Below, in pieces: positions 47,365-64,000 of a stretch of 64,000 nucleotides of DNA. The stretch comes from an uncultured bacterium (GTDB lineage: Bacteria > Chlamydiota > Chlamydiia > Chlamydiales > VFKH01), in NCBI GenBank assembly GCA_964630595.1, contig CAZVVT010000001.1:399383-463382 (forward strand). The letters are read 5' to 3'. A program made the position numbers and the translations under genes. The notes under the pieces were generated by a model. The model was given only the letters and a program-made list of their open reading frames with translations, was not told the origin of the DNA and searched no databases. Position 1 is the first letter of the stretch, and every line of letters begins with the position of its first letter.

Positions 47365-48257
47365 CGCCGAAATGATACGACGAGTGTAGCGATTGCAGCA
47401 ACGCTAAGAAGCGTGGCATAGAGTGCCCCGGTGGACAAAGCGGTGCCAAACTCGCTCAAAATATGCCTACTGAGGGCCACGGCAACAAAGGCCGCCGCTG
47501 CTGCCACCGTAAAGGCCAGCAGATGCATAGTGCCAAAGCGGCGCGCGAGACGGTGCCCAATGAGCCCCGGAGCAATCAGGCAAGCTAAAACAGCGACCAC
47601 TCCAAAGGTGTGGATGCCGATGACCATGGCCGCGGCGCTTTCAACCATCAAAAGCCAAAAAAGGGAGCGCACGGGCAGCCCAACACTCTGCCCAAAGCGG
47701 GGATCAAAGCAGGCCATCTTCCACTCTTTGTAAAAAAGAATCTGCAACCCCAAAACAAGCCCCGCGATGACCCACAAGGGCCCAAGCTCGTCGCTCGTCA
47801 ATGTGTCGGAGGAGCCCATGATCACCGACGTCCCCAAATGGATATTCTTCGCATAAGAGGTAACGAGAAGCAGCGCGAGGGCAAAAAGAGCGGTAAAGAC
47901 CAATCCAATCGCCGCATCTTCCTGCAGCCGCACATAGGTGCGAAAAAAACCCACCAGCGCACAGGTGAGCACCGCCGCAAGAATGCCGCCGATGAAAAAG
48001 GAATCGGCGGCGAAAAGATCGCCCATGATCAACCACACCACGACCACTCCTAAAAGGGTGGTATGCGAGAGCGCGTTGGCCAACATGGTCAACCGCTTGT
48101 AGATCAACATGGGGCCAATGATCGCGGCCGTGACGCTAAAGGCTAAAAGCGCCATGAGCTGCACTTCGTCGGGCGCTAGCGATTCTGCCCCCTGCACAAG
48201 CCGCTGCCCTAACGTAGCAAAAAACGAAAAGAAATCGGCGCCGCGGTAGGGATTCAC
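47358..48257 (-). CDS. ytgD: Metal ABC transporter permease (ABC-3 family), YtgD-like
   Basis: 299-aa polytopic ORF of the ZnuB/MntB/TroD type. It is last in the ytgA-B-C-D order. Confidence 0.8.
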   Translation of the reverse strand: MNPYRGADFFSFFATLGQRLVQGAESLAPDEVQLMALLAFSVTAAIIGPMLIYKRLTMLANALSHTTLLGVVVVWLIMGDLFAADSFFIGGILAAVLTCALVGFFRTYVRLQEDAAIGLVFTALFALALLLVTSYAKNIHLGTSVIMGSSDTLTSDELGPLWVIAGLVLGLQILFYKEWKMACFDPRFGQSVGLPVRSLFWLLMVESAAAMVIGIHTFGVVAVLACLIAPGLIGHRLARRFGTMHLLAFTVAAAAAFVAVALSRHILSEFGTALSTGALYATLLSVAAIATLVVSFRRC

Positions 48258-49429
48258 TTCTTCCTCGGGATGGGTTGACGATGCGGATCCAAGTGAGGAA
48301 AGCCGAGGAGCTGCTCGATTTCCTGCTCCATCTCAGCAGTGATCTTGTGCTCCGCCTCTTCCGCAATGGCATGCACAGCCTCTTTATCCAAGCCCACCTC
48401 TTCGGTGAGGTAGAGTTCAAAAAGGCGGTGGAGGCGAATGACATGCATCGCTCTTTCTCGCCCCTTTTCTGTCAGACTGTGGTCCGAGTATAAATATCCT
48501 TTACACACCAAAAGAAAGAGCAACCACGCCGATTCCTCTATCTTGCGTTCTTTGACAAGCGCTTTGAGAACGTTTTCTGCGCGAATCTTGAAGCGACTGC
48601 GAAGGCTACGCACAAGAGTGGCTACAAAGCCGCGACCAGGAGCAAAGAGAAGGCTCAGTAGAGCTATGGCGGAGGCAATCAGGCTCACGATAGGTCCTGT
48701 GGGGATGTTGTAGCTCCAACTTAAAGCAACCCCTAGCAAAGCACTGGCGGCCGCAACGAGTGCGGAAACCATGAGCATGCAGCTCAAGCTTTTCACCCAA
48801 GCGCGCGCTGCAATGGCCGGAGCAATGAGCATCGCGGAGAGAAGCACAACACCGAGAGTGCGAATTCCGAGAACAACCACCGCTAACGTCAGTGCTGCAA
48901 TCCCGATACGAGAAAAGCGCAAGCCCTGGGTCTGCGCAAAACTCTCATCAAAAAGGGTGGCCAGAATCTGTTTGTAGAGCAGCACCAAAACGGTAATGAC
49001 AACGGCCGCCAAAATTGCAAAGAGCAGCGCGTCATTTTCCGACAAGGTGGCTGCCTGGCCGAAGAGGTAGTGGTTGGCCGAGCGCCAGCTTTGCGGGAAA
49101 GCGCGTTGCACACCACTGGCAAGAAGGGTCCCGACGGCGAAAAAAGCCGAAAGGGTGAAGCTTAAAGAAAGATCTTGGCTCATGCCTTTTTTGCGCAACA
49201 AACTCGCCAGCAACCAACCCGCACAAGCCATTACTGCAGCACATACAACTGTGATTACCCCCAAGCTACTTACAAACAACGCAGCGATGACAATCCCGGG
49301 AAAGGTGGCGTGACTTAAACATTCCGCAATCAACAGCTGCTTGCGCGCAAAAAGCAAAACACCCACCAACCCCAGCGCAATCGCCATGAAGAGAGAAGCA
49401 ATCATGGGAGTGAGTAAGAGTTGATCCAT
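48254..49429 (-). CDS. ytgC: Metal ABC permease fused to a C-terminal DtxR/MntR-like repressor domain (YtgC-YtgR fusion)
   Basis: Within ORF 48254..49549 I prefer the ATG at 49429 (MDQLLLTPMIASL), a TAATG junction with the ytgB stop. The N-terminal ~290 aa are an ABC-3 permease. The C-terminal ~100 aa (LTEKGRERAMHVIRLHRLFELYLTEEVGLDKEAVHAIAEEAEHKITAEMEQEIEQLLGFPHLDPHRQPIP) match the DtxR-family metal-binding/dimerisation region. Confidence 0.85.
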   Translation of the reverse strand: MDQLLLTPMIASLFMAIALGLVGVLLFARKQLLIAECLSHATFPGIVIAALFVSSLGVITVVCAAVMACAGWLLASLLRKKGMSQDLSLSFTLSAFFAVGTLLASGVQRAFPQSWRSANHYLFGQAATLSENDALLFAILAAVVITVLVLLYKQILATLFDESFAQTQGLRFSRIGIAALTLAVVVLGIRTLGVVLLSAMLIAPAIAARAWVKSLSCMLMVSALVAAASALLGVALSWSYNIPTGPIVSLIASAIALLSLLFAPGRGFVATLVRSLRSRFKIRAENVLKALVKERKIEESAWLLFLLVCKGYLYSDHSLTEKGRERAMHVIRLHRLFELYLTEEVGLDKEAVHAIAEEAEHKITAEMEQEIEQLLGFPHLDPHRQPIPRKK

Positions 49430-50157
49430 TATTGTGTCACAGCGTCGAAAATTTTGGGTTGAGCACCAAAGGTTTTCTGGATGTTTTCTTCGGTGCACAC
49501 CTGCGCCGTTATACCGGAGGCAATCAGGCGACGGTTGAGCAAAATACACGAGTCAAAATAGCGTTTCAGCGTGGCCAAATCGTGGTGTACAATCAATATG
49601 GTTTTGCCCTCATCGCGCAGGGCACTGAGCTGCTCAATCAGCAGCTCTTCGGTCACCTTGTCAACGCCGGCAAAGGGCTCATCCATGAGAAGAATTTCCG
49701 CGCCCTGCATCAGAGCGCGAGCAATGAAGAGTCGCTGTTTTTGTCCGCCAGATAAGGAGCTAATTGGTTGATCGGCAAAGGACTGCATGTTGAGCTGAGA
49801 CAGCAGCTGATCGGCCTGGGCGTGTTCTTTTTGAGATGGGCGGCGGAAAATTCCCAAACGACCATAGCAGCCCATCAAAACAACGCCTCGTCCCGTGATG
49901 GGAAAATCCCAATCCACACTGTCGCGCTGAGGCACATAGGCCACCTTAGTGCGCACCGCTTTCAAAGGTTGGCCCAAAAAACGCACCGACCCACAGCTGG
50001 TGCGCACAAGCCCCAGCATCGCTTTCAGCAGCGTGCTCTTGCCGGCACCGTTGGGTCCTGCAATTGCCACCAACGTGCCTGCAGGAATACGAAAGGTGAG
50101 ATCCCACAACACAGGCTTTTCATTGAAATGAACGGAAAGACCTTCTACCTCGATCAT
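49429..50157 (-). CDS. ytgB: Metal ABC transporter ATP-binding protein, YtgB-like
   Basis: 242-aa ORF with Walker A GPNGAGKST, the signature LSGGQKQR and Walker B ILLMDEPFAGVD. Confidence 0.9.
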   Translation of the reverse strand: MIEVEGLSVHFNEKPVLWDLTFRIPAGTLVAIAGPNGAGKSTLLKAMLGLVRTSCGSVRFLGQPLKAVRTKVAYVPQRDSVDWDFPITGRGVVLMGCYGRLGIFRRPSQKEHAQADQLLSQLNMQSFADQPISSLSGGQKQRLFIARALMQGAEILLMDEPFAGVDKVTEELLIEQLSALRDEGKTILIVHHDLATLKRYFDSCILLNRRLIASGITAQVCTEENIQKTFGAQPKIFDAVTQ

Positions 50158-51077
50158 TGCAGTCCCTCACGAATCACTTGAGCATTGTAGAGAACCATGC
50201 CCTCCCACAAAGCCGCCTGACTCTCTTTGGGTCCCAGAGTGTCGCTGTAGAGGGGCTTTTCTGCGATGGAGACAGTAACCCCCTCCCCTTTTGCTACTGT
50301 GACAATGCGCTCAATGGCATCTCGGTTCACCGCCTCTTCCACAAAAACAACGGGGATGGCGTGACGCTTGATCTGCGAAATAATGGTACGCAGGTCGGAC
50401 AAACTAATCTGGCCGTCAGGAGCCAGCCCCTCGGGGGCAAAACAGTGGTTCTGCCAGTCGGTCACGTTGAAATAGGCGCGCACAAAATAGTGAAAGGCGT
50501 CGTGGCAAGTAACAAGATAGCGACACTGCGGCGGAATATGCGCAATCTCCTCGCGAACTTGGCGGTCGAGCTGCTGAAGCCGCGCGCTGAGTTGTGCCGC
50601 ACGCTGCCGGTATTGGGCCGCATGTTCTGGATCTGCTTCACAAAGCGCCTGCTCAATGAAGGGCACGCTGCGCGCAAATAGCGCCACATCCATCCAGATG
50701 TGCGGATCGAGCTCGGAGGCGCTGTGAATAATAGCCGAAGGCTCCTGCTTCAGGATCAAATCGCCCAAACCCACCGCATGTGGGGAGTTTTTGAGCCATC
50801 GACAAAGGCTCGCTCCGTGCTCTAACCCTAAACCGTTGTAGAAAACCAGCCGCGCATCAAAAAGTTTTTCCTCATCCCCTTTGACGAATTCGTACGAATG
50901 AGGATCGAGCCCCTCCCCGATGAGAGTATCCACGAATACCTCCTCTCCGCCCACCGCCTGTACGATGTCGGCAATCATGGCTGTTGTGGCTACAACCCGT
51001 AACTGAGTGGAATCCGCAGGAGCTTTAGAGCCGCAGGAGGCCAACAAAATAAGGGCTATGAAGAGAATATTTTTCAT
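50154..51077 (-). CDS. ytgA: Periplasmic metal-binding protein (cluster A-I SBP: TroA/ZnuA/MntC type), YtgA-like
   Basis: 307-aa ORF with the lipoprotein-like signal LILLASCGS. Conserved segments are DPHSYE and DPHIWMD, with CHDAFHYF in the C-lobe. Confidence 0.85.
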   Translation of the reverse strand: MKNILFIALILLASCGSKAPADSTQLRVVATTAMIADIVQAVGGEEVFVDTLIGEGLDPHSYEFVKGDEEKLFDARLVFYNGLGLEHGASLCRWLKNSPHAVGLGDLILKQEPSAIIHSASELDPHIWMDVALFARSVPFIEQALCEADPEHAAQYRQRAAQLSARLQQLDRQVREEIAHIPPQCRYLVTCHDAFHYFVRAYFNVTDWQNHCFAPEGLAPDGQISLSDLRTIISQIKRHAIPVVFVEEAVNRDAIERIVTVAKGEGVTVSIAEKPLYSDTLGPKESQAALWEGMVLYNAQVIREGLQ

Positions 51078-51630: not shown

Positions 51631-51687
51631 TTTGAGGGCCGAATTTGACCCAAATTCCCCTTCGGCTGTAATCTATTCTCTTTAAAT

Positions 51688-51722
51688 GTGTCCGACTCTT
51701 AAGGGTCGGACACTTCTTTTTT
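51688..51722 (+). terminator. Rho-independent terminator
   Basis: Stem gtgtccgac (51688-51696) / gtcggacac (51705-51713), followed by ttctttttt. Confidence 0.8.
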
Positions 51723-51742
51723 CACAAGGAACCAAAAACCCC

Positions 51743-53287
51743 ATGTCTAGCAAATCGCAAGAGTTTGGACGCTGGCGCTCTTTTTTCTGGCCGGTCCACG
51801 CTCATGAGCTGAAGAAAATTCTTCCGATGCTCCTTATGTTTTTTTGTATCTCGTTCAACTACACAATCCTGCGCGATACGAAAGATGCTCTCGTAGTAAC
51901 TGCCCCCGGTTCGGGTGCCGAAGCCATTCCCTTCATTAAGGTATGGTGTGTCGTGCCTGCGGCCGTGGTCTTTATGATCGTCTATGCCAAGTTGAGCAAC
52001 ATGCTCAGCAAGCAGGCGCTCTTCTACGCGACAACAATTCCCTTTCTCCTCTTTTTCGCTCTCTTTGCGTTGGTCTTTTATCCCGCAAAAGATGCCCTTC
52101 ATCCCACAGACTTAGCAGACCGTTTGCAAGCAGTCCTTCCTCAAGGTTTGGGCGGCTTAGTAGCGATTTTCCGTAACTGGATCTACGCCGTGTTCTACGT
52201 CTTGGCAGAACTCTGGGGTTCTGTGATGCTCTCTCTGCTCTTCTGGGGCTTTGCCAACGACATCACACGCGTTTCGGAAGCAAAGCGTTTCTACGCTCTC
52301 TTCGGTATCGGTGCGAACCTGGCCTTGATGGTCTCCGGACCTGCCATCGTCTACGTCTCCGATATTAAGCGTAAACTACCCGTCGGCATTGATGCTTGGG
52401 GCGTTTCGATTAACTATCTCATGACGATGGTCGTCGTTGCCGGATTAGTCATTATGGCCACCTACTGGTGGATCAACAAGAACGTCTTGACCGACCCACG
52501 TTTCTACAATCCTGGCGAAGTCAAGAAGGCGAAGAAAGAAAAGCCCAAGATGAGTGTCATGGAAAGCTTCAAGTACCTCGCTCGTTCGAAGTACATCGCT
52601 TGCCTGGCTATTCTCGTCATCGCCTACGGCGTATCCATCAACCTCGTCGAAGTGACTTGGAAGAGCCAACTCAAACTGCAATACCCCGACGCCAACGACT
52701 ACAGCACATTCATGGGTAAATTCTCGTTCACAACGGGAATTGTCACCGTCTTTATGATGCTCTTCGTCGGTGGTAACGTCATCCGCCGTTTCGGCTGGGG
52801 CGTGGGCGCCATGATTACTCCGGTTGTTTTGTTGATCACCGGGATCGCCTTCTTCGCCTTCGTTCTCTTTAGAGACAACTTGGCGGGCACCATTGCTGCT
52901 TTGGGCACCACTCCCCTCTTCTTAGCGGTGATTGTGGGTATGATCCAAAACATCATGAGTAAGTCGGCAAAGTACTCACTCTTTGATCCTACGAAGGAAA
53001 TGGCCTACATTCCCCTCGACCAGGAAGCGAAGGTAAAGGGTAAAGCGGCGATTGACGTAGTAGGTGCTCGTCTGGGTAAATCCGGCGGCTCGCTCGTTCA
53101 GCAAGGCCTGCTCCTCATGTTTGGTACCATTGCAGCGATTACCCCCTATGTGGCGGTCGTCCTCTTTGCCATCATCGGTGCTTGGCTCATCGCTGCTCGC
53201 TCTCTGAGTAAGCAGTTCCACACTGTTTCGGCAGGTCATGATGCCCCTATGGGTCATGCAGTACCTCCGGTAGCAGAAAAAGGCTAA
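51743..53287 (+). CDS. Nucleotide transporter, NTT/Tlc ATP:ADP antiporter family, copy 1
   Basis: The track ORF 51686..53287 begins inside the upstream terminator, so I prefer the ATG at 51743 (MSSKSQEF). The product is a 12-TM protein with FNYTILRDTKDALVVTAPGSGAEAIPFIKVW, LFWGFANDIT and KYSLFDPTKEMAYIPLDQE, hallmarks of chlamydial/rickettsial/plastid NTTs. Confidence 0.9.
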   Translation: MSSKSQEFGRWRSFFWPVHAHELKKILPMLLMFFCISFNYTILRDTKDALVVTAPGSGAEAIPFIKVWCVVPAAVVFMIVYAKLSNMLSKQALFYATTIPFLLFFALFALVFYPAKDALHPTDLADRLQAVLPQGLGGLVAIFRNWIYAVFYVLAELWGSVMLSLLFWGFANDITRVSEAKRFYALFGIGANLALMVSGPAIVYVSDIKRKLPVGIDAWGVSINYLMTMVVVAGLVIMATYWWINKNVLTDPRFYNPGEVKKAKKEKPKMSVMESFKYLARSKYIACLAILVIAYGVSINLVEVTWKSQLKLQYPDANDYSTFMGKFSFTTGIVTVFMMLFVGGNVIRRFGWGVGAMITPVVLLITGIAFFAFVLFRDNLAGTIAALGTTPLFLAVIVGMIQNIMSKSAKYSLFDPTKEMAYIPLDQEAKVKGKAAIDVVGARLGKSGGSLVQQGLLLMFGTIAAITPYVAVVLFAIIGAWLIAARSLSKQFHTVSAGHDAPMGHAVPPVAEKG

Positions 53288-53314
53288 CTAATAATTTAGT
53301 TTAATGTCTTGACA

Positions 53315-53351
53315 CCCCCATTCTTGGTAACGAGAATGGGGGTTTCTTTTT
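53315..53351 (+). terminator. Rho-independent terminator between the two NTT genes
   Basis: Stem cccccattct (53315-53324) / agaatggggg (53333-53342), followed by tttcttttt. Confidence 0.8.
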
Positions 53352-53363
53352 GGGAACAAAACG

Positions 53364-54830
53364 ATGCAACCGCATTTCAGCAAACTCCGCTCTTTCTTCT
53401 GGCCTGTTCATAGCCACGAACTGCGCAAGGTGCTGCCCATGCTGCTCATGTTCTTTTTTATCACCTTTAACTACACGATCCTACGTGACGCAAAAGACAC
53501 TCTTTTAATCACCGCTCCCGGATCGGGTGCTGAAGTGATCCCTTTCCTCAAGCTCTGGCTCGTTCTGCCTGCAGCTGTCCTCTTCATGCTGCTCTATGCC
53601 GAGATGAGCAACATCCTTTCCCGTCCGGCACTCTTTTATTCGACCCTCTTTCCCTTCCTGATCTTCTTCGGCATCTTCGGATTCGTCCTCTACCCTTTGC
53701 GCGACTCACTGCATCCTCATGAAAGTGGGCAGTGGCTCAGCTCCCTACTCCCCCAAGGACTCAGTGGTCTTGTGGCCATCTGGCGCAACTGGAGCTTTGC
53801 TCTCTTCTACGTCTTTGCCGAGCTCTGGGGCTCCGTCATGCTCTCGCTCGTCTTCTGGGGTTTTGCCAACCAGATCACAAAAGTAGGTGAAGCCAAGCGG
53901 TTCTATAACTTCTTCGGCCTCGGCGGCAACATCGCCCCCGCCTTTGCCGGTCCGCTCACGGTCTTTCTCTCTAACTTAAGCCCCAGCATGTCCACAGGCT
54001 ACGGCACCACCATTCGCTTTATCTGCGGCACCTCCATCATCGTCGGTCTCTGCATCGCAGGCTGCTACTGGTGGATGACGCGCAACGTACTCACCGACCC
54101 CCTGCTCTACAAAGAAAACCCCCACAAACCGAACAAACCCAAACTGGGACTCAAAGAAAGTTTCCGCGTCCTGTCCCGCTCTAAGTACTTGGGCTGCATC
54201 GCCATCCTCGTGATCACTTACGGCATTGCAATGAACCTGATTGAGGTGAACTGGAAGAGCCAGGTGCGCATGCAGTACCCCGACGCCAACGACTACGCGC
54301 GCTTCATGGGCCACTTTTCGACCTGGACGGGCATTGCCTCTTTCATCATGGTCTTCTTAGTTGGCGGTAACGTCATCCGCCGCTTCGGCTGGGACACCGC
54401 TGCCCTCGTCACCCCCATTGTACTTCTCGTCACCAGTATCTGTTTTTTCGCCTTCGTTCTCTTCCAAAACGAGCTGACCTCACTCACCCTTCTCTTCGGC
54501 ACCTCGCCCCTGATGCTGGCGGTCATCTTCGGCGCCATCCAAAACATCATGAGCAAGTCGACCAAGTACTCCCTCTTTGACCCCACCAAAGAGATGGCCT
54601 ACATTCCGCTCGATGAGGAGTCCAAAGTAAAAGGTAAAGCCGCCATTGACGTGGTTGGCAGCCGCTTCGGCAAATCGGGTGGCGCCTTCATCCAGCAAGG
54701 GCTCCTGCTCGGCTTCGGCACTGTCACCGCCATCACTCCGTACGTTGCTTCCACCATGTTCTTCGTCATCGCCGCCTGGGTCTTCGCCGCCCGCTCCCTC
54801 GGCCGTCAATTCGCTAGCAAAACAACGTAA
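53364..54830 (+). CDS. Nucleotide transporter, NTT/Tlc family, copy 2 (tandem paralog)
   Basis: 488-aa ORF collinear with copy 1 (FNYTILRDAKDTLLITAPGSGAEVIPFLKLW, VFWGFANQIT, KYSLFDPTKEMAYIPLDEE). About two thirds of residues are identical over the stretches I aligned by eye. Confidence 0.9.
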   Translation: MQPHFSKLRSFFWPVHSHELRKVLPMLLMFFFITFNYTILRDAKDTLLITAPGSGAEVIPFLKLWLVLPAAVLFMLLYAEMSNILSRPALFYSTLFPFLIFFGIFGFVLYPLRDSLHPHESGQWLSSLLPQGLSGLVAIWRNWSFALFYVFAELWGSVMLSLVFWGFANQITKVGEAKRFYNFFGLGGNIAPAFAGPLTVFLSNLSPSMSTGYGTTIRFICGTSIIVGLCIAGCYWWMTRNVLTDPLLYKENPHKPNKPKLGLKESFRVLSRSKYLGCIAILVITYGIAMNLIEVNWKSQVRMQYPDANDYARFMGHFSTWTGIASFIMVFLVGGNVIRRFGWDTAALVTPIVLLVTSICFFAFVLFQNELTSLTLLFGTSPLMLAVIFGAIQNIMSKSTKYSLFDPTKEMAYIPLDEESKVKGKAAIDVVGSRFGKSGGAFIQQGLLLGFGTVTAITPYVASTMFFVIAAWVFAARSLGRQFASKTT

Positions 54831-54851: not shown

Positions 54852-55418
54852 ATGGCAGCCGTAGGTCCCAAACCACCCTCTGATGAAGAAAAGCCCGCTA
54901 TTCGCTATGAAACACCTCTTACCGACGAGGCTGTGAGAGTAGCGCAAGCCGCCATTCCTGCCATTCACGCTTCTGTGAGCTGGACTCGTTATGATGCCAC
55001 CATACGTGGCGCACTCTCCTATGAGCCTGAATCATTTATTATTGCCAAAGAAGAGGGACGCACGATCGGGTATATTCTATCCCAGAATAGAGGCCGAACT
55101 TGGACAGTAGAGTATATTGCTGTAACCGCTGAAAAGGCCACTCGTGGAGTGGGAAGCGAACTTATGCTGCGTACCATGAAAAAGGCGAAGAAGGCGGGTG
55201 CCTTAGTTGTCGTCGCCCACTTCCGCGGCAACAAGCCCAACCTTCAGAAGTTCTACGGAAGTCTGGGAGACAAAGCGCGCGCCCGTCATCTCGTCATTTC
55301 CACCACCATTGAAGACACGGGGACTACTTACCAAAATGACGATCCACGGCACGAAGTGCGCTACACCATCGACCCGTCAGAGGAACCTCCACCAGAGGAA
55401 GGTAAAGCCTCTAAGTGA
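54852..55418 (+). CDS. GNAT-family N-acetyltransferase (probable)
   Basis: 188-aa ORF. The segment VEYIAVTAEKATRGVGSELMLRTMKKAKKAGALVV resembles the GNAT motif A (Q/RxxGxG/A) acetyl-CoA loop and is followed by NLQKFYGSLG. Confidence 0.55.
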   Translation: MAAVGPKPPSDEEKPAIRYETPLTDEAVRVAQAAIPAIHASVSWTRYDATIRGALSYEPESFIIAKEEGRTIGYILSQNRGRTWTVEYIAVTAEKATRGVGSELMLRTMKKAKKAGALVVVAHFRGNKPNLQKFYGSLGDKARARHLVISTTIEDTGTTYQNDDPRHEVRYTIDPSEEPPPEEGKASK

Positions 55419-56212
55419 TCTTTGAAGCGCACATCCACGAAAAGCTTTGCGGCAGTTCGCCATAAAACCGTGGAAAAGTCTTCGGAGGCTGTATATCCCA
55501 TCACAAGATCACCAGTCAGACCCGCATCACAGTGGATCGCGCCCTTTCCCGTATAGACAGCTAAACCGTCGGGAATGCGAAACCCCGTCATAGAGAGTCG
55601 AGTTCCCTTCTTGTTCCATCTAGCAAGTAGATAGCAACCGCCCCCTTTTACCGATTGGTGATAGTGCGGTTGGTCATGATGGTACTCTAGATACATCTTC
55701 CCATCTTTCGACATAGCGGGGAAATAGTCTTCGCCCACAGACATCCTCCATAGAGGAAAAAGAGGGGTTGGAAAACGCACCACCTCACCTTTACGAATGA
55801 GCTTCGCACCATAATAGGCAAGTGACGACTCCGTCGCTTCTATACAAGGAATATCCACCGACTCTCTAGACAACTGCAAACAGCCATTGCCTCCTAAAGC
55901 ATTATCACCTGCTCCAGAAGAAATGATTGTCTTATCCCACACAGCAGCAACTTTGCACCGTATGGGTTTCTCTATCTCTTTAGAATCCCGGATCGCCTCT
56001 TCAAGATCTACTCCAGCAAGCGCTGAAGGCACCAGGCGATGGCCATCGAATTGATAGGCAATATCTCCTCGAATAACACTCTCCAAGTCCAGCGTCTTCA
56101 TGTGCTGCCCCGGCTCTCCTCGATCCACAAACATCGAAGCCACCAGACTTGGTGAATAACTCGGTAGAGCTTCACAAGCTCTTTGGATCGGACTCAGTGT
56201 GCATGCTGCCAT
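55361..56212 (-). CDS. Hypothetical protein (283 aa)
   Basis: ORF lying 46 bp downstream of the M56 protease gene on the same strand. No recognisable family. The His-rich patch is YLEYHHDQPHYHQ. The 3' end overlaps the convergent GNAT gene by 58 nt. Confidence 0.55.
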   Translation of the reverse strand: MAACTLSPIQRACEALPSYSPSLVASMFVDRGEPGQHMKTLDLESVIRGDIAYQFDGHRLVPSALAGVDLEEAIRDSKEIEKPIRCKVAAVWDKTIISSGAGDNALGGNGCLQLSRESVDIPCIEATESSLAYYGAKLIRKGEVVRFPTPLFPLWRMSVGEDYFPAMSKDGKMYLEYHHDQPHYHQSVKGGGCYLLARWNKKGTRLSMTGFRIPDGLAVYTGKGAIHCDAGLTGDLVMGYTASEDFSTVLWRTAAKLFVDVRFKDHLEALPSSGGGSSDGSMV

Positions 56213-56258
56213 ATACTTCTCCTTTACTACACTTGTAGTATTTAAAAATAAAAAAACT

Positions 56259-57257
56259 CTAACAAACCCAAAACACCACCAGCGCCAATGAACTGATGAT
56301 CGCTCCGATCACCGCAGTTAGCGTCAACTTCATCGAGTCGTCACGCAACAGAATCGCAAAGCGTTTCACTAAAAAGTGATTGCGCGTTGCAAGATGACAG
56401 AAAGCTTCCTCTTCTTGGTGCGGCTGCTGCACCATTTTCAGGATTGCAGAGGCCAGTGCGTGATGATCCAAAACTTCTGCATCAGAAGCTAGCTCCTGCT
56501 CCCCTTCTAATCGGTCAAGCCACCACTTCGTAGGAATCCACCAAAAAACACTTGTGATCACACGAGATAAAAGCTTGGCTAAAGGGTCCTTCCAGCGCAC
56601 GTGAGCCAATTCATGACCAATCACTGCTTCCAGCTCTTCTTGCGATAGATGCTTGAGCGCTGTTTCCGAGAGTACAATTTTCCGCTCGCGAGTGGCGAAA
56701 GGCATTTGTGTCTTGTTTGAAACGAGCACTTTTACGCGGGATACATCGATCTGCTGCCATAATTTCCCACTCACCATTCCCTGAGCGATCGGTGTTGCCG
56801 TCAAACAAATGGTATTCAGCTGTTTGATCGCCCAGAAACAGTTGAGAAGTCTTTTCGTTAAAAGAGCTGCCGATACCACTGCGACAATCCCCACAATGGC
56901 TTGCAGCAGTCCCTCCGATATATGATGCGATAAAACGCTCGCCAAAGGAGCTCTCGCATTCACGACAATGCCTTCTGTTATCGATAGTGGAAGAGCTTTC
57001 ACAATGGCTTCCTCAATCAAAAACTGACAACTGAAGGGGTTGAAGTTTGTGAAAAAATTCCAGTTAGAGAATTTGTACAAAAGCAGATCGAGCGGAAGCT
57101 TCATGATGGGCAAGAGACGGCAGAGCACTCTCAATCGCGGATTTTTGACACGAAAAAGACTCAGCCCGCCCTCAATCAACAGTGCCGTAACACTGAAGAC
57201 TAAGAGACTGCTTACAAAGAAGTGCGAGATCTGTAGAAACGTACTGCTTGCGCTCAT
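56259..57257 (-). CDS. M56-family (BlaR1/MecR1-like) membrane zinc metalloprotease lacking a C-terminal sensor domain
   Basis: 332-aa ORF with N-terminal TM segments and the HExxH motif in LEAVIGHELAHVRWKDP. It ends after one more TM, with no transpeptidase-like sensor. Its start overlaps the upstream repressor stop (ATGA). Confidence 0.8.
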   Translation of the reverse strand: MSASSTFLQISHFFVSSLLVFSVTALLIEGGLSLFRVKNPRLRVLCRLLPIMKLPLDLLLYKFSNWNFFTNFNPFSCQFLIEEAIVKALPLSITEGIVVNARAPLASVLSHHISEGLLQAIVGIVAVVSAALLTKRLLNCFWAIKQLNTICLTATPIAQGMVSGKLWQQIDVSRVKVLVSNKTQMPFATRERKIVLSETALKHLSQEELEAVIGHELAHVRWKDPLAKLLSRVITSVFWWIPTKWWLDRLEGEQELASDAEVLDHHALASAILKMVQQPHQEEEAFCHLATRNHFLVKRFAILLRDDSMKLTLTAVIGAIISSLALVVFWVC

Positions 57258-57637
57258 CCTCTATCCTTTCGCTTCTGTTTTGCCTCTGCAATCATCTTCT
57301 GCATTTGGTCGAGCTCTTCCTCGGTCAACTCATCTGCTCCATCGAGAAGACAGCTCACTACTTCTGCGGGTTTGAACCCAAACAGCTTCTTTTTTAAAAC
57401 CTTGATGAAGGAGGGGAAGGTGCCCTCAGATTGCACAATCCAATAGGTGCATCTAAGGCCATTGCGCTCTCGTGCGAGCTCTTTCTTCTGCACAAGACGA
57501 TTCATGACCGTTAAAATGGTGGTGTACTTATCTTTGCCACCCAGAGCACGATGCATATCCATGACGGTCCATTTTTTGCCGTCAGAAAGCATCTTCAGTA
57601 CACTCAGTTCTAACTCACCAAAACCGCGTTTCACCAT
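57254..57637 (-). CDS. BlaI/MecI/CopY-family winged-helix repressor
   Basis: 127-aa ORF. The segment ELELSVLKMLSDGKKWTVMDMHRALGGKDKYTTILTVMNRLVQKKELARERNG..YWIV matches the Penicillinase_R fold pattern. Confidence 0.82.
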   Translation of the reverse strand: MVKRGFGELELSVLKMLSDGKKWTVMDMHRALGGKDKYTTILTVMNRLVQKKELARERNGLRCTYWIVQSEGTFPSFIKVLKKKLFGFKPAEVVSCLLDGADELTEEELDQMQKMIAEAKQKRKDRG

Positions 57638-57666
57638 ATCCCTCTCACTTGATTAGGGAACGATTG

Positions 57667-57682
57667 TACTACAGTTGTAGTA
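57667..57682. promoter_or_regulatory. BlaI/CopY-type operator palindrome TACTACA-GT-TGTAGTA (contains TACAnnTGTA)
   Basis: Perfect 7-bp inverted repeat with a 2-bp spacer, 30-45 bp upstream of the repressor start. It contains the TACAnnTGTA core known for CopY/BlaI/MecI boxes. No U-run follows on either strand. Confidence 0.7.
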
Positions 57683-57708
57683 AATTGGCAAGTTTTATAC
57701 GTATTTGC

Positions 57709-59508
57709 TTAAGCTTTAAGGACTTCCATAAAGGCGCTCTGAGGGATATTCACCTTGCCGATCTCCTTCATGCGCTTCTTGCCCTCTTTCTGCTTCTCCC
57801 AAAGCTTGCGCTTGCGGGAGATGTCGCCGCCGTAGCACTTAGCGGTGACGTTTTTGCCCATCGCTTTGATGGTTTCGCGGGCAATGATTTTGCCTCCGAT
57901 GGCTGCCTGCACGGGCACTTTGAAGAGCTGCGGGGGGATGACCTCAATGAGTTTTTCGCAGATGGCGCGGCCTTTGTATTCCGCTTTGCTGCGGTGCACA
58001 AGACAGGAGAAGGCGTCAACGGGCTCTTCGTTCACGCGGATTTCCAATTTGACAATGTCGCTTTTGGCGTAGTCGCTCACTTCGTAGTCGAAAGAACCGT
58101 AGCCTTTGGAAAGAGATTTGAGGCGGTCGTTGAAGTCAGTGACGATTTCGTTTAAGGGAAAGCGGTAGGTCAATAGCAGCCTGGTTCCATCAATCGAGTC
58201 GGTCTTTTCGGGGATGCCGCGCTTTTCAGTAGCAAGGCTCATCAGCGCGCCCAGGTACTCCTGAGGTAGCATGATGCGGCAGGTCACCCAGGGCTCTTCG
58301 ACAAAGTCGATGTGAGTGGGATCGGGGTAGTGCGCCACGTTGTCGATCTCAATCATCTCGCCACTATGCGTATGAAAGCGGTAGACCACACTCGGTGCTG
58401 TCGTGATGATGTCGAGGTTGAATTCCCTCTGTAGGCGCTCAAAGACAATCTCTAAATGAAGCAGTCCCAAAAAGCCGCAGCGGAAGCCAAAGCCAAGAGC
58501 TTGGCTGCTCTCCTGTTCGACGTGCAGCGCCGAATCATTGAGCTGCAGTTTTGCCAAGCCATCGCGCAACGCTTCAAAATCGCTGGAGTCGACGGGATAG
58601 ATCCCTGCAAAAACCACCGGCTTAATCAACTTGAATCCGGGAAGCGCTTCAGGGCAGGGGTATTTTGAATTCGTCAGCGTATCCCCGATCTTCACATCAC
58701 GCGTCTCTTTGATGTTGGCAATGACATAGCCCACTTCGCCCGGACCGAGCGCCGCCTGCGGCTTAATGCCGGGGCAGAAAGCGCCTACTTCCAGCACCTC
58801 AAAGCGCTGGTCGGAGAGCATCAGCAAAATCGGCGTACCTTTCTTCAGCTCTCCCGAAATGATTCGCACATAGAGCATCACCCCGCGGTAGGGGTCGTAA
58901 TGAGAGTCAAAAACCAGCGCCCGCAGTAGGCCATCTTCGGGCACCTTCGGCGGCGGTACGAGAATCAAGACGCGCTCGAGCACATCGGCAATACCGATGC
59001 CACTCTTCGCCGAACAAAGGGCGGCATTGCTGGTGTCCAGACCAATGACGTCTTGAATCTGACGCTTGACGCTCTCTACGTCTGCCGAAGGCAGGTCAAT
59101 CTTGTTGATGACGGGAATTACTTCGAGATTTCTCTCCAACGCCAGCCAGACGTTGGCCAAACTCTGCGCCTGCACCCCTTGCACCGCATCAACCACCAAC
59201 AACGCCCCCTCACAAGCCGACAGCGACCGCGACACTTCGTAGGTAAAGTCCACGTGCCCGGGAGTGTCAATCAAGTTGAGCTGCCACTTGATGCCCTCCT
59301 TATCGGTGAAGTTCATCGTCACCGGATGGGCTTTAATCGTAATGCCCCGCTCCCTCTCCAAATCCATCGCATCCAGCACCTGCTCCTGCATGAGCCGCTT
59401 TTCAATGGTATGCGTCAACTCCAGCAATCGGTCGGCGAGGGTGGACTTGCCATGGTCGATGTGGGCAATGATCGAAAAGTTACGGATGTACTTAGGGTCG
59501 TGAGGCAT
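57709..59508 (-). CDS. lepA: Translation elongation factor 4 (LepA)
   Basis: 599-aa ORF with [30 protein letters not shown] and NKIDL, plus the LepA-specific C-terminal domain. Confidence 0.95.
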
Positions 59509-61024: not shown

Positions 61025-61097
61025 GTGCCCGTAGCTCAGTGGATAGAGCGGTCGCCTCCTAAGCGACAGGTCGCGCGTTCGACTCGCGCCGGGGACG
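61025..61097 (+). tRNA. tRNA-Arg (anticodon CCU)
   Basis: Hand-folded cloverleaf. The acceptor is GTGCCCG/CGGGGAC with one G3-G70 mismatch. The D-arm is GCTC-AGTGGATA-GAGC and the anticodon arm GTCGC-CTCCTAA-GCGAC (CCT). The variable loop is AGGTC, the T-arm GCGCG-TTCGACT-CGCGC and the discriminator G. CCA is not encoded. Confidence 0.8.
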
Positions 61098-61742
61098 ACA
61101 ATAGGCGTCCAGTATGTACTTGTCAATTCCGCGGGCCACGCCAAGAGCCAGTCGACTCAAGTAGTTTTTCTCCAAAATAGCCGCCTTTTCCTCCGGGTTG
61201 GTCAAAAACCCCCCCTCCACCAAAACAGCCGGCATATGAGTATTGCGAATCACCCGAAAGTTGGCCGATTTGACACCGCGCGATGTACGCCTTGTTAAAG
61301 AAATAATCTGATCTAAAATGGACTGCCCCAGCGCCTTCGAAGCCTCCATGCGCACCGGATTCTTCTCATCTTTAAAATAGAATACTTCGATGCCCTTGGC
61401 TTTTTTTGACTCTGCCGCATTGAAATGCAGCGAAACGAAGAGATCTCCATCGAGATCATTCGCTATTGCTACTCTGCGATCTAGATCGACAAAGGTATCG
61501 GCACTGCGCGTCATGAGCACGCGATAGCCCATGGTGTGCAAGTAGTTGCGCAAGGTATAGGCCGTTGTCAGTGAAAGAGTCTTTTCATCAACATCATCCG
61601 GTTCTGGCGCCGCTCCCTCATCTGCACCACCATGACCTGCATCAATAACAATCAATGGACCGGTGGGTTGCATACGCGGTTGTGGCATTTGGCGAGAACA
61701 GCCCACCAACACAATAAAGAAAAGCACTAAGAGGCGAAGCAT
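61059..61742 (-). CDS. amiA: N-acetylmuramoyl-L-alanine amidase (Amidase_3; AmiA-like lipoprotein)
   Basis: 227-aa ORF with the lipobox LVGC. Matching segments are VIDAGHGG, SLHFNA and LVEGGFLTNPEE. The last 13 codons are antisense to the tRNA-Arg gene. Confidence 0.85.
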   Translation of the reverse strand: MLRLLVLFFIVLVGCSRQMPQPRMQPTGPLIVIDAGHGGADEGAAPEPDDVDEKTLSLTTAYTLRNYLHTMGYRVLMTRSADTFVDLDRRVAIANDLDGDLFVSLHFNAAESKKAKGIEVFYFKDEKNPVRMEASKALGQSILDQIISLTRRTSRGVKSANFRVIRNTHMPAVLVEGGFLTNPEEKAAILEKNYLSRLALGVARGIDKYILDAYCRPRRESNARPVA

Positions 61743-63169
61743 GCAGCAGCAACCTCTACATCATCGAAGGGAGTTTGGTGACCGCGGAAGATCTGCGTTG
61801 TCTCATGACCTTTGCCGGCAATAATGATCACATCCCCTTTCTTGGCCTCTCGAATGGAAAGAGCAATCGCGCTGGCTCGATCGAGCTCCACGGTAACATT
61901 GTCTCTCTGCTGAATACCGGAGAGAATATCGCGTGCAATCGCTTCGGGATCTTCGCTGCGCGGATTGTCCGAAGTGACAATCACTCGGTCTGCCCACTCA
62001 GCAGCCACCTTTCCCATCAAGGGCCTCTTGCCCTTATCGCGATCACCGCCGGCGCCAAAGACCACAAACAAACGACCCGCATTTTCCATCTCGCGCACGG
62101 TGCGCAGCACATTCTTCAACGAATCATCATTGTGCGCATAGTCCACAAACAGATGCACACCCCGCTTGTTCTCCACTCGCTGCAGCCGTCCACGCACGGT
62201 GGAGAACGAAGAAAGCGCCTCAGCACATTGCTGCAAAGGCAAACCCCGATGCAGCCCTACTGCAATGGCCCCTAGCGCATTCAAAACATTGAAACGTCCC
62301 GGGATCGCCAACGTGAAGGGACAGCTCTGCTCGCCGTACACCAATTGGCACTCACTGCGATCGGCATAAAGCCTGACGTTTTCTGCGCGCAGATCAGCTC
62401 TTTCAGAAAAGCCAATCGTTAACGTCGGCGCATTGCTTTTCATCCGTCCAGCCCAAGGGTCTTCGAGGTTAATGACCGCCAGGCCGCCTGATTTCAGCTG
62501 CTGAAAAAGAAGGCTCTTGGCTTCGGCGTAGGATTCCATCGTCTTGTGATAGTCGAGATGGTCCTGTGTCAAATTCGTAAAAATCGCCACATCAAAGTCG
62601 ATCTGCGCTACTCGCTTCTGCACAAGGGCATGAGACGAGACCTCCATCGCGCAAGCACCACACCCATCAACCACCATCTCTTTTAGCAGCCGGTGGCAAG
62701 TCACCACATCGGGCGTCGTCATCGTTGCCCCTAGCCTACGCGTACGCGTCAGCCAATCCACCGTGCCAATGACGCCGCACGCCAAGCTGGCCTGATCGAG
62801 CAGATGTTTGATCATGTAGGTCGACGTCGTCTTCCCATTCGTCCCCGTCACCCCTACTACGAAGAGCTTGCGGCTGGGATCTTCAAACAAACGCGAGGCC
62901 AAAAAGGCCTCTGCCTCTGTCACATCGCTAGCCACAATTTGCACAACCTTAACCTGCGGATTGAACAAAGAACACAAAATCGCCACCGCTCCAGCATCGA
63001 GAGCTTTGGGAATAAAGTGGTGTCCATCTACCTGTGCGCCCCTTTTCGCCACAAACAAATGGCCCGGCGCGACTACTTGCGAATTCGACGTAATGCCGCT
63101 GACATCCACATCGCGATTGCCATACACCGTACAGCCCGGTAGCTCTTTAAGAAGGTCTTTCAGTTTCAT
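61727..63169 (-). CDS. murE: UDP-MurNAc-L-Ala-D-Glu:meso-DAP ligase MurE
   Basis: 480-aa ORF with the P-loop VGVTGTNGKTT, the Mur ligase middle and C domains, and DNPR (the DAP-specific motif) in TSDNPRSEDP. Confidence 0.92.
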   Translation of the reverse strand: MKLKDLLKELPGCTVYGNRDVDVSGITSNSQVVAPGHLFVAKRGAQVDGHHFIPKALDAGAVAILCSLFNPQVKVVQIVASDVTEAEAFLASRLFEDPSRKLFVVGVTGTNGKTTSTYMIKHLLDQASLACGVIGTVDWLTRTRRLGATMTTPDVVTCHRLLKEMVVDGCGACAMEVSSHALVQKRVAQIDFDVAIFTNLTQDHLDYHKTMESYAEAKSLLFQQLKSGGLAVINLEDPWAGRMKSNAPTLTIGFSERADLRAENVRLYADRSECQLVYGEQSCPFTLAIPGRFNVLNALGAIAVGLHRGLPLQQCAEALSSFSTVRGRLQRVENKRGVHLFVDYAHNDDSLKNVLRTVREMENAGRLFVVFGAGGDRDKGKRPLMGKVAAEWADRVIVTSDNPRSEDPEAIARDILSGIQQRDNVTVELDRASAIALSIREAKKGDVIIIAGKGHETTQIFRGHQTPFDDVEVAAACFAS

Positions 63170-64000
63170 TTACTTATTCCATGAATCGTACAGCTGGCGC
63201 AGCTTTTCTGTCTGTAGCAGCCAGTCGCCCTTCTCTTTGTCGCGGCGAGGATCACCAGATGGCCAGCCGTAGGGGTCATCGGGGCTCTCTCCAAGGAAGG
63301 AGAGAACGCGCGTGCCGATGAAGCGGAAGAGGGGCGCAGCGCATCTGCCGCCGCGGCTGTTTTTTCCCCAGCCGGGAATGTAGATAGCCGCCGGCTCATC
63401 CATCGAGATGATGAGAACAAAGCGTGGATGAGTCAGAGGGGCAAAACCGATGAAACTGGAGACGTTTTTGTCTTTGGCATAAACCCCATTCACAATCTTT
63501 TCTGTTGAAGCGGTTTTGCCGCATTCAGTAAAGCCGTAGATGTCCGCCAAAGAACACGACCCGCCCGGCTTTGTCGTGAACTTCATCGCATCAATGACCC
63601 GGCGCAGAATCGCTGCATCGATAATCGGCTCTGCACTGCGCTGCGGCTTCATTTCGTAGACGATTTTCTTTTCGCCGTGCGCATCGGTTTTTGTAATGCG
63701 CTTGATCAGCGTGGGCTTCACCAGGTAGCCTCCATTAGCAAAGGCGGCATAGACACGCATCACCTGAAGCGTTGTGGCTTGAATGTTGTGGCCCATCGCG
63801 AGCGAATAAGGCGTCGGAGTCGACCACTGCAACTTCCCGTTCTTATGCTTCTTGCCAAAACCGGGCAGCACACCCTCGCTCTCTCCGGGCAGCTCGATGC
63901 CTGTCTTGGTGCCAAATCCAAAGAGTGCGAGTTGGTCGTGATACCACTGCGCCCCCTTCGTATTGATGATGCGCTGCACCATACGCGCCACGTAGATGTT
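63170..64000 (-). CDS. ftsI: Penicillin-binding protein 3 / FtsI transpeptidase (3' part; gene continues beyond right edge)
   Basis: The frame is open to the window edge (NIYVARMVQRIINTKG...). The transpeptidase C-terminal motifs are present (SFIGFAP, the KTGT-like ECGKTAST). It abuts the murE start, giving the amiA-murE-pbp3 order. Confidence 0.85.
   Translation of the reverse strand, partial: NIYVARMVQRIINTKGAQWYHDQLALFGFGTKTGIELPGESEGVLPGFGKKHKNGKLQWSTPTPYSLAMGHNIQATTLQVMRVYAAFANGGYLVKPTLIKRITKTDAHGEKKIVYEMKPQRSAEPIIDAAILRRVIDAMKFTTKPGGSCSLADIYGFTECGKTASTEKIVNGVYAKDKNVSSFIGFAPLTHPRFVLIISMDEPAAIYIPGWGKNSRGGRCAAPLFRFIGTRVLSFLGESPDDPYGWPSGDPRRDKEKGDWLLQTEKLRQLYDSWNK

Follow-up and report, generated by a model that had tools for sequence, protein, structure and literature searches.

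A probable three-gene BlaI/BlaR1-type proteolytic derepression module in an environmental chlamydia

In regard to gene regulation in environmental chlamydiae, the locus described here raises the question of what a BlaI-like repressor controls when it is encoded together with a membrane protease that carries no beta-lactam sensor, and by which steps such a protease could relieve the repression. The locus is found in a 64,000-nucleotide stretch of contig CAZVVT010000001.1 (positions 399,383 to 463,382; assembly GCA_964630595.1) from an uncultured bacterium of the Chlamydiales, referred to below as the window. The original prediction had placed there a 127-aa repressor of the BlaI/MecI/CopY family and a 332-aa M56 protease, joined by an ATGA overlap, and both open reading frames (ORFs) are indeed present on the minus strand. 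However, the pair is not the whole of the unit. A second operator (O2) and a gene for a cupin-like protein behind it (together 55361..56240) had been omitted, and because of these two elements the functional unit is one of three genes and two operators, extending over approximately 55361..57691 on the minus strand. Building on the observed family assignments, promoter/operator geometry and conservation of operators and synteny, we consider that this unit is probably a BlaI/BlaR1-type module of proteolytic derepression. The nearest relatives of all three proteins belong to Parachlamydiaceae, Protochlamydia and other chlamydial metagenome-assembled genomes.

The three genes and their two operators

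The repressor gene (57254..57637, minus strand; all coordinates are those of the window) encodes a protein which matches PF03965 over its full length, with E=8e-16 and residues 7-117 aligned to profile positions 2-114 of 115, and which has the architecture of the family, an N-terminal winged helix followed by a C-terminal helical dimerisation region. On the plus strand, positions 57254-57257 read TCAT, which corresponds on the coding strand to an ATGA shared by the repressor stop and the M56 start, and this overlap is kept in relatives. The second gene (56259..57257, minus strand) encodes a membrane zinc metalloprotease of 332 aa with the motif HELAHVRWKD (H215-E216-xx-H219, with E255). Its best Pfam match, above the cutoff, is PF05569 (E=3e-16), so that both family assignments of the original prediction held in the profile searches it had proposed. 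A BlaI-like gene is here adjacent to and co-oriented with an M56 gene devoid of a transpeptidase domain, the arrangement which defines the sensor-less BlaIR pairs.

As had been predicted, a perfect palindrome precedes the repressor. This operator, O1 (TACTACAGTTGTAGTA, 57667..57682, strandless), is 16 bp long and located 29 nt upstream of the repressor ATG. A consensus scan placed a sigma-70-like promoter of the repressor around it, TTGCCA-17-TACAAT (57691..57663, minus strand), matching the consensus in 10 of 12 positions, with the -35 hexamer TTGCCA at 57686..57691 and the -10 hexamer TACAAT at 57663..57668. O1 occupies 14 bases of the spacer and, overlapping the -10 element by 2 nt, also gives its first two bases (TA). 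Between the -35 and the -10 is where repressors that keep RNA polymerase out classically bind. Likewise, the TACA/TGTA dyad of the predicted O1, overlapping the repressor's own promoter, is in line with the habit of the BlaI/MecI/CopY family. A Shine-Dalgarno-like GAGAGGG, read from the sequence, is present at 57640..57646 (minus strand), 2 nt before the repressor ATG.

The search for further operators, which the original prediction had called for across the genome, yielded in the 64-kb window a second perfect copy, O2 (TACTACACTTGTAGTA, 56225..56240, strandless). It is located between the M56 stop and the Shine-Dalgarno sequence AAGGAG (56219..56224, minus strand, read from the sequence) of the third gene, an ORF encoding a 283-aa cupin-like protein (55361..56212, minus strand), which is the predicted regulated target. 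O2 abuts this AAGGAG, itself 6 nt before the ATG, and the whole intergenic region between the M56 gene and the cupin-like gene comprises 46 bp. The two perfect 16-mers, 1.4 kb apart, therefore flank the repressor-protease pair. In the window, TACANNTGTA occurs three times against 0.15 expected, and the 16-mer at up to two mismatches also three times against 0.02 expected. The remaining weaker matches, at 17208 and 25778, are inside long ORFs; they look like chance, and the window seems to hold no further members of the regulon.

The position of O2 also bears on the direction of regulation. Homologues of BlaI and CopY are able to activate transcription (bioRxiv 10.1101/2020.07.31.226407), and the chlamydial repressor could do the same at O2, as PetR does at petJ, in which case the cupin-like gene would be on when the repressor is present. 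However, the activating site of PetR is centred at -35, whereas O2 is 12 nt away from the ATG, up against the Shine-Dalgarno sequence, and thus downstream of any possible promoter, a position that fits repression and not activation. We consider activation at O2 most improbable, and what follows is based on repression at both operators.

Operators and downstream genes across chlamydial loci

The conservation of the operators was followed in a census of 21 loci encoding the repressor-M56 pair (169 kb in total), with up to two mismatches allowed in the motif. Upstream of the repressor gene, an operator was found in 20 of the 21 loci, at a distance of 24-36 nt from the ATG, and one to three copies were found just 3' of the M56 gene in 16, giving 23 sites directly 5' of the ribosome-binding site of the next gene; the layout of an operator followed by GGAG before the downstream gene is also present in relatives. 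These 43 placed sites, with one more found elsewhere, compare with 0.54 expected by chance. In the two closest relatives of the window's pair, L022 and L024, no downstream operator was found at this threshold, and L022 holds one degenerate copy of the core motif just past the M56 stop. The consensus drawn from 51 sites, aaTACTACRnnYGTAGTA, has an invariant core (CTAC/GTAG) and two central bases that vary freely, and none of the 51 sites showed compensatory changes in its half-sites. The promoter elements are kept as well. In all 11 aligned loci, amid diverged flanking sequence, the operator's last TA followed by NNNT forms a -10 element of the form TAnnnT. Most of these loci also have a -35-like hexamer (TTGACA, TTGCAT, TTGCAA etc.) 3-4 nt upstream of the operator.

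The same data bear on the possibility that the palindromes act as RNA, either as the terminator of lepA or as hairpins, and not as operators for a protein. O1 is located 27 nt past the lepA stop, and a hairpin of 6 bp could form at each palindrome. However, these hairpins are weak and comparable to those of shuffled sequences (-6.1 kcal/mol with a z-score of -1.8 for one segment, -8.1 kcal/mol with a z-score of -1.6 for the other), no U-tract was found 3' of either palindrome, and O1 is set within -35 and -10 elements. Furthermore, the motif precedes the repressor also where the upstream neighbour is another one or, as in L022, divergently oriented, and the combination of invariant half-sites with a free centre and no compensatory changes fits a protein-binding dyad and not an RNA helix. 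A role as terminator or RNA hairpin was thus rejected, being scarcely credible on these data, in agreement with the original prediction, which had already judged the lepA terminator unlikely. The conservation pattern fits O1 and O2 as predicted protein-binding operators.

In most of the loci, 6-8 consecutive T and then an A-rich stretch (e.g. TTTTTTTAAAAATAAA) were also observed 10-20 nt upstream of the proximal operator (L004-L010, L029-L038; window 56241..56258). This T-run before the downstream operator could be an UP-like element, a -10 element or the tail of a terminator; no consistent terminator stem was found at it.

The genes behind the downstream operator differ between lineages. Besides the window, six loci (L003, L004, L005, L006, L009 and L010) have the cupin-like gene behind the repressor-M56 pair, again with operators. 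In other loci, this place is taken by a 2OG-Fe(II) oxygenase (L029), a UDP-sugar dehydrogenase and an epimerase (L030), an EamA transporter (L031 and L034), two RidA genes with signal peptides (L026, L027 and L035) or small proteins without known domains (L032, L036, L037 and L038). Such differences suggest a regulatory cassette with exchangeable cargo. The operators accompany the downstream gene whatever it encodes, even where the regulatory genes are not adjacent: at L007:1823-2806, a homologue of the cupin-like gene has two operators, with neither a repressor nor an M56 gene in the 1.9 kb upstream, and its regulator may act in trans. At L006:4319-4555, the repressor ORF is truncated at 78 aa, from a frameshift or an assembly error.

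As for the cargo of the window itself, the 283-aa protein had no match in Pfam, in NCBIfam or in a sequence-profile search of the PDB. It has 59 close homologues, and the profile search gathered 635 cluster representatives. Its AlphaFold2 model is of high confidence (pLDDT 92) and suggests a cupin-like beta-barrel, and the Foldseek matches of this model were weak and all to cupins (E~2e-3, TM ~0.2). Residues E176, H178, H183, H185, H227, C228 and D229 are invariant and do not fit the canonical cupin motifs; they suggest a putative metal site. Homologues outside Chlamydiae (in Entotheonella, Legionellaceae, Endozoicomonas and others) are found without the pair or the motif, among heterogeneous neighbours.

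Related to this, the protein represents an unannotated domain family present largely in host-associated bacteria (including P0094, P0097, P0099, P0125, P0170, P0172 and P0180). Some members have a fusion partner, which is either a pair of cNMP-binding domains, an NhaC-type antiporter or a set of ankyrin repeats. Neither the fusion partners nor the gene neighbourhoods of the family pointed to an activity. In the window, the cupin-like gene on the minus strand converges with a plus-strand gene for a GNAT acetyltransferase (54852..55418), the two sharing 58 bp (55361..55418), and the last ~10 residues of the cupin-like protein are unconserved and modelled with low confidence.

Repressor, protease and the proposed switch

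According to the mechanism we propose, a repressor dimer would bind the 16-bp dyad of the consensus. On O1, it would block RNA polymerase, leading to autoregulation of the repressor and of the translationally coupled M56 protease. The same repressor on O2 would shut off the cupin-like gene, either by blocking an overlapping, weak internal promoter or as a roadblock to transcription that reads through from the repressor promoter. Upon a signal, the membrane-embedded zinc protease would cleave the repressor, so that both O1 and O2 would be released. DNA binding, proteolysis and the direction of regulation are here, as for all chlamydial members, what we infer from sequence. The autoregulated proteolytic switch envisaged in the original prediction gains support from the family assignments, the promoter overlap and the conservation across loci.

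A profile built from ten chlamydial orthologues of the repressor matched solved structures of the BlaI/MecI group, the best being M. tuberculosis BlaI (2G9W, 5e-7), along with B. licheniformis BlaI (1P6R), 1SD4 and, over the full length, S. aureus MecI (1OKR, positions 10-118 against 12-122); the single-sequence search of the repressor against solved structures returned nothing at E<=0.01. These matches have to be set beside the features that recall CopY. In a CopY-type switch, the repressor itself would bind metal and leave the TACAnnTGTA box, and the M56 protease would be an accessory or unrelated to derepression. Several observations fit: the operator contains the cop box and agrees with 12 of the 14 positions that are specified in the experimentally refined CopY operator RNYKACANNYGTMRNY (PMC7253601), TIGR02698 (CopY_TcrY) is the best NCBIfam match of the repressor, the conserved His/Cys-rich site of the cargo suggests a metalloprotein, the closest studied sensor-less pair, PetRP, is copper-responsive (bioRxiv 10.1101/2020.07.31.226407), and one locus, described below, has no protease. 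However, the repressor scores 35.7 with TIGR02698, the cutoff of which is 121.95, and it has no C-terminal CxC...CxC, its only cysteines being C63 and C96, neither of them conserved. Furthermore, no copper ATPase or chaperone was found nearby, and 20 of the 21 loci have kept the M56 partner and its translational coupling. The identity of the repressor as CopY was rejected on the basis of the score and the missing cysteine motif, and we regard the CopY-type switch in general as quite unlikely compared with proteolytic derepression.

The chlamydial M56 subfamily is uniform, with 24 close homologues of 325-343 aa each, and residues H215, E216 and H219 of HExxH, as well as E255 and D259, are invariant in 19 orthologues of that length range. 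In the AlphaFold2 model (mean pLDDT 80), four long helices follow one another in the order known from BlaR1 (2-34, 40-63, 115-153 and 313-331); hydropathy peaks were obtained at 7-37, 112-142 and 308-332, and helix 40-63 is weakly hydrophobic. This is the M56 layout, with four transmembrane helices and the protease domain between helices 3 and 4. The chain stops at the last residue of the final hydrophobic helix, without any extracytoplasmic C-terminal domain, and no PF00905 match, i.e. no transpeptidase/PBP domain, was found in the protein, which bears out the predicted absence of a penicillin-binding sensor. Two chlamydial homologues have already been labelled beta-lactamase-regulating signal transducers by public pipelines. 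On the other hand, scores against the BlaR1/MecR1 models remain far below their cutoffs (NF000326, 35.7 against 400; NF033109, 19.9 against 1200), and a true BlaR1/MecR1 identity was rejected for this reason and for the missing sensor domain: the protease is M56 but not BlaR1. No beta-lactamase gene was found in the locus.

It could also be that the M56 protein is a general quality-control protease, similar to HtpX/M48, or that it sequesters the repressor at the membrane instead of cleaving it. Matches of lower rank, to PF01435 (M48) and HtpX models, the missing sensor domain and the unconserved BlaI cleavage site would be compatible with such roles. Against them, PF05569 is the best match and BlaR1 the best solved fold (S. 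aureus 8EXP, 8EXQ and 8EXS in Foldseek, 8EXP on top; E=7e-5 to 7e-4, TM 0.43-0.45), while the invariant HExxH, E255 and D259 argue against a non-catalytic function. In addition, strict pairing and ATGA coupling with a BlaI-type repressor are the signature of BlaIR systems, and 96% of M56 genes are found within five genes of a BlaI homologue (PMC13492132). Quality control or sequestration is thus unlikely, and cleavage of the repressor by its M56 partner stays the preferred explanation.

Several observations nevertheless weigh against a switch of this kind, and have to be counted with the evidence for it. The scissile bond of BlaI/MecI, N101-F102, aligns with C96-L97 in the repressor of the window and with Y/H-L in relatives, so the cleavage site is not conserved. 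The fold match of the protease to BlaR1 is moderate (TM 0.45), its single sequence returned nothing at E<=0.01 against solved structures, BlaR1 being missed, and its sequence profile matched minigluzincins and HtpX only, again missing BlaR1. As a consequence of the latter, the autocleavage loop of BlaR1 could not be aligned to C287 of the chlamydial protein. In the Protochlamydia metagenome-assembled genome JACDAQ010000014.1 (L008, 5303-5960), the M56 gene is reduced to seven codons (MIANPIF*), while the repressor with its operator is retained, as are the cupin-like gene and two operators downstream. In this natural protease-less variant, derepression would have to take place otherwise, or not at all. 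In relatives, furthermore, a distal operator flanked by promoter-like sequence is located 70-90 bp before the proximal operator; it is absent from the window. Finally, the scan of the window revealed no convincing separate promoter for the cupin-like gene, and when the window and three relatives were scanned for a promoter or a terminator separating the M56 gene from the cargo, nothing consistent was found. Taken together with the intergenic region of only 46 bp, this means that O2 may stop read-through or act on an overlapping weak promoter.

With regard to the signal, the missing sensor domain means that it cannot be beta-lactam acylation of such a domain, as the original prediction had reasoned. 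Since there is no extracytoplasmic C-terminal domain, sensing would have to involve the membrane helices, the periplasmic loop of ~50 residues with the motif NFNPFSC, the cytoplasmic face or the repressor itself. Throughout the chlamydial M56 subfamily, the NFNPFSC loop has an invariant N73 and P74 and a nearly invariant C77. C287 is also invariant and located near the active site, in a flexible loop (282-287) between the last two cytoplasmic helices that is modelled with low confidence, and in 13 of 19 orthologues, a cysteine is the very last residue (332), after transmembrane helix 4. A more speculative version of the mechanism, and in our view a long shot, is that the protease may sense a chlamydia-specific envelope cue via C77, C287 and the C-terminal cysteine, as part of a portable cassette that would have captured unrelated cargo in different environmental chlamydiae, secreted RidA pairs and small secreted proteins included. 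A candidate cue could be the periplasmic thiol/disulfide state, changing between the elementary body and the reticulate body. The conserved cysteines allow a redox-sensing hypothesis and do not support it; if it were true, the protease would be a redox- or cysteine-switch-gated enzyme of the BlaR type, a kind not described so far.

Regarding the genomic surroundings, the unit is next to lepA (57709..59508), with amiA (61059..61742), murE (61727..63169) and a fragment of a PBP transpeptidase (63170..63991) following further on. The presence of these cell-wall genes was confirmed. However, the link to a reduced peptidoglycan machinery that had been drawn from them is unsupported, because the genes preceded by the operator in relatives encode mostly small-molecule enzymes and transporters, and not cell-wall functions. 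Elsewhere in the window, gnd and two tandem genes for TLC-family nucleotide transporters of 533 and 488 aa (51686..54830, plus strand; the first with PF03219 at E=5e-230) were found, as well as a metal ABC transporter operon (48254..51077, minus strand). The latter consists of a ZnuA/YtgA-like binding protein (50154..51077, minus strand), an ATPase (49429..50157, minus strand) and an ABC-3 permease fused to the C-terminal domain of an iron-dependent repressor (48254..49549, minus strand). This last gene is a YtgC-YtgR-type fusion, which is typical of Chlamydiae and itself a cleavage-released repressor. The genes of these surroundings, from the TLC transporters and the YtgC-YtgR-type fusion to amiA, murE, lepA and gnd, place the organism within Chlamydiae.

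Comparison with known systems

Few transcriptional regulators of Chlamydiae are known together with their operator, and environmental chlamydial lineages are hard to manipulate genetically. Among the papers searched, none was found on BlaI/M56 in Chlamydiae. With a promoter, a repressor, a protease, a clear target gene and a 16-bp operator that is conserved over more than 20 loci, the module described here represents a complete, testable circuit. One could start from it to map a regulon or, once the signal is identified, use it as a tool for inducible expression. It would also add one more phylum to the evidence that BlaIR systems are general transducers of signals and not sensors of beta-lactams, and it draws attention to an uncharacterised cupin-like family (~635 sequence clusters, enriched in host-associated bacteria) as a predicted regulated output.

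The classical relatives are the BlaI/BlaR1 and MecI/MecR1 systems of S. aureus, which have in common with the chlamydial locus a PF03965 winged-helix repressor, TACA/TGTA dyads over promoters, an M56 protease with HExxH, and autoregulation. Compared with BlaR1/MecR1, the chlamydial protease lacks the C-terminal penicillin-binding sensor, a domain of ~250 aa, and has 332 aa against 585 aa. The locus also differs in having no beta-lactamase or PBP2a target and in the co-directional order of its genes, with the repressor first, and the N101-F102 site is unconserved.

The absence of a sensor, correctly noted in the original prediction, is not unusual. Out of 254 architectures, the most frequent is an M56 domain to which no recognisable C-terminal domain is attached, and BlaR1 proteins bearing a transpeptidase domain make up only ~6% of the M56 family (PMC13492132). 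Apart from PetR/PetP, characterised examples without a sensor are CenIR of Clostridioides difficile (PMC13492132), mycobacterial BlaIR and PvmSR of P. aeruginosa (bioRxiv 10.64898/2026.08.03.742534). CenI/CenR and the mycobacterial BlaI/BlaR (Rv1846c/Rv1845c) are BlaIR pairs whose protease has no transpeptidase domain and whose signal, where known, is not a beta-lactam (PMC13492132), and it is the M. tuberculosis protein of the latter that gave the best match to the chlamydial repressor profile. Differences are found in the protease, as CenR has an extracellular tail of ~125 residues and the chlamydial protein has none, and in the regulons, which comprise cell-envelope genes in the case of CenIR, and blaC and ATP synthase in the case of mycobacterial BlaIR.

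CopY/CopR of Firmicutes belong to the same repressor fold family and use a 16-bp operator, RNYKACANNYGTMRNY, which contains TACAnnTGTA (PMC7253601). In the chlamydial operator, the outermost bases are T...A instead of R...Y. The chlamydial repressor differs further by the lack of a CxC metal-binding motif and of a cop operon, and by the presence of a partner protease.

The most extensive likeness is to PetR/PetP of Synechocystis sp. PCC 6803. Both systems have the same gene order, with the start of the protease overlapping the stop of the regulator. PetP, an M48/M56 protease without a sensor, resembles the chlamydial protease in its four predicted membrane helices and in the lack of an extracytoplasmic domain. 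It controls the abundance of PetR, an instance of proteolytic control by a sensor-less M56 protein (bioRxiv 10.1101/2020.07.31.226407). PetR, which belongs to the BlaI/CopY family, also binds an inverted repeat between the -35 and -10 of a repressed promoter, which is the arrangement predicted for the chlamydial repressor. On the other hand, PetR recognises GACN5GTC and not a TACA/TGTA dyad, and PetRP responds to copper and controls plastocyanin and cytochrome c6, whereas the predicted chlamydial targets are the cupin-like protein or other variable genes.

In its architecture and logic, the chlamydial module is therefore one of the known sensor-less BlaIR pairs, and nothing established about them is overturned. 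What is distinctive here is the combination of a clean, conserved operator with variable cargo, and of a protease having no extracytoplasmic tail with several conserved cysteines.

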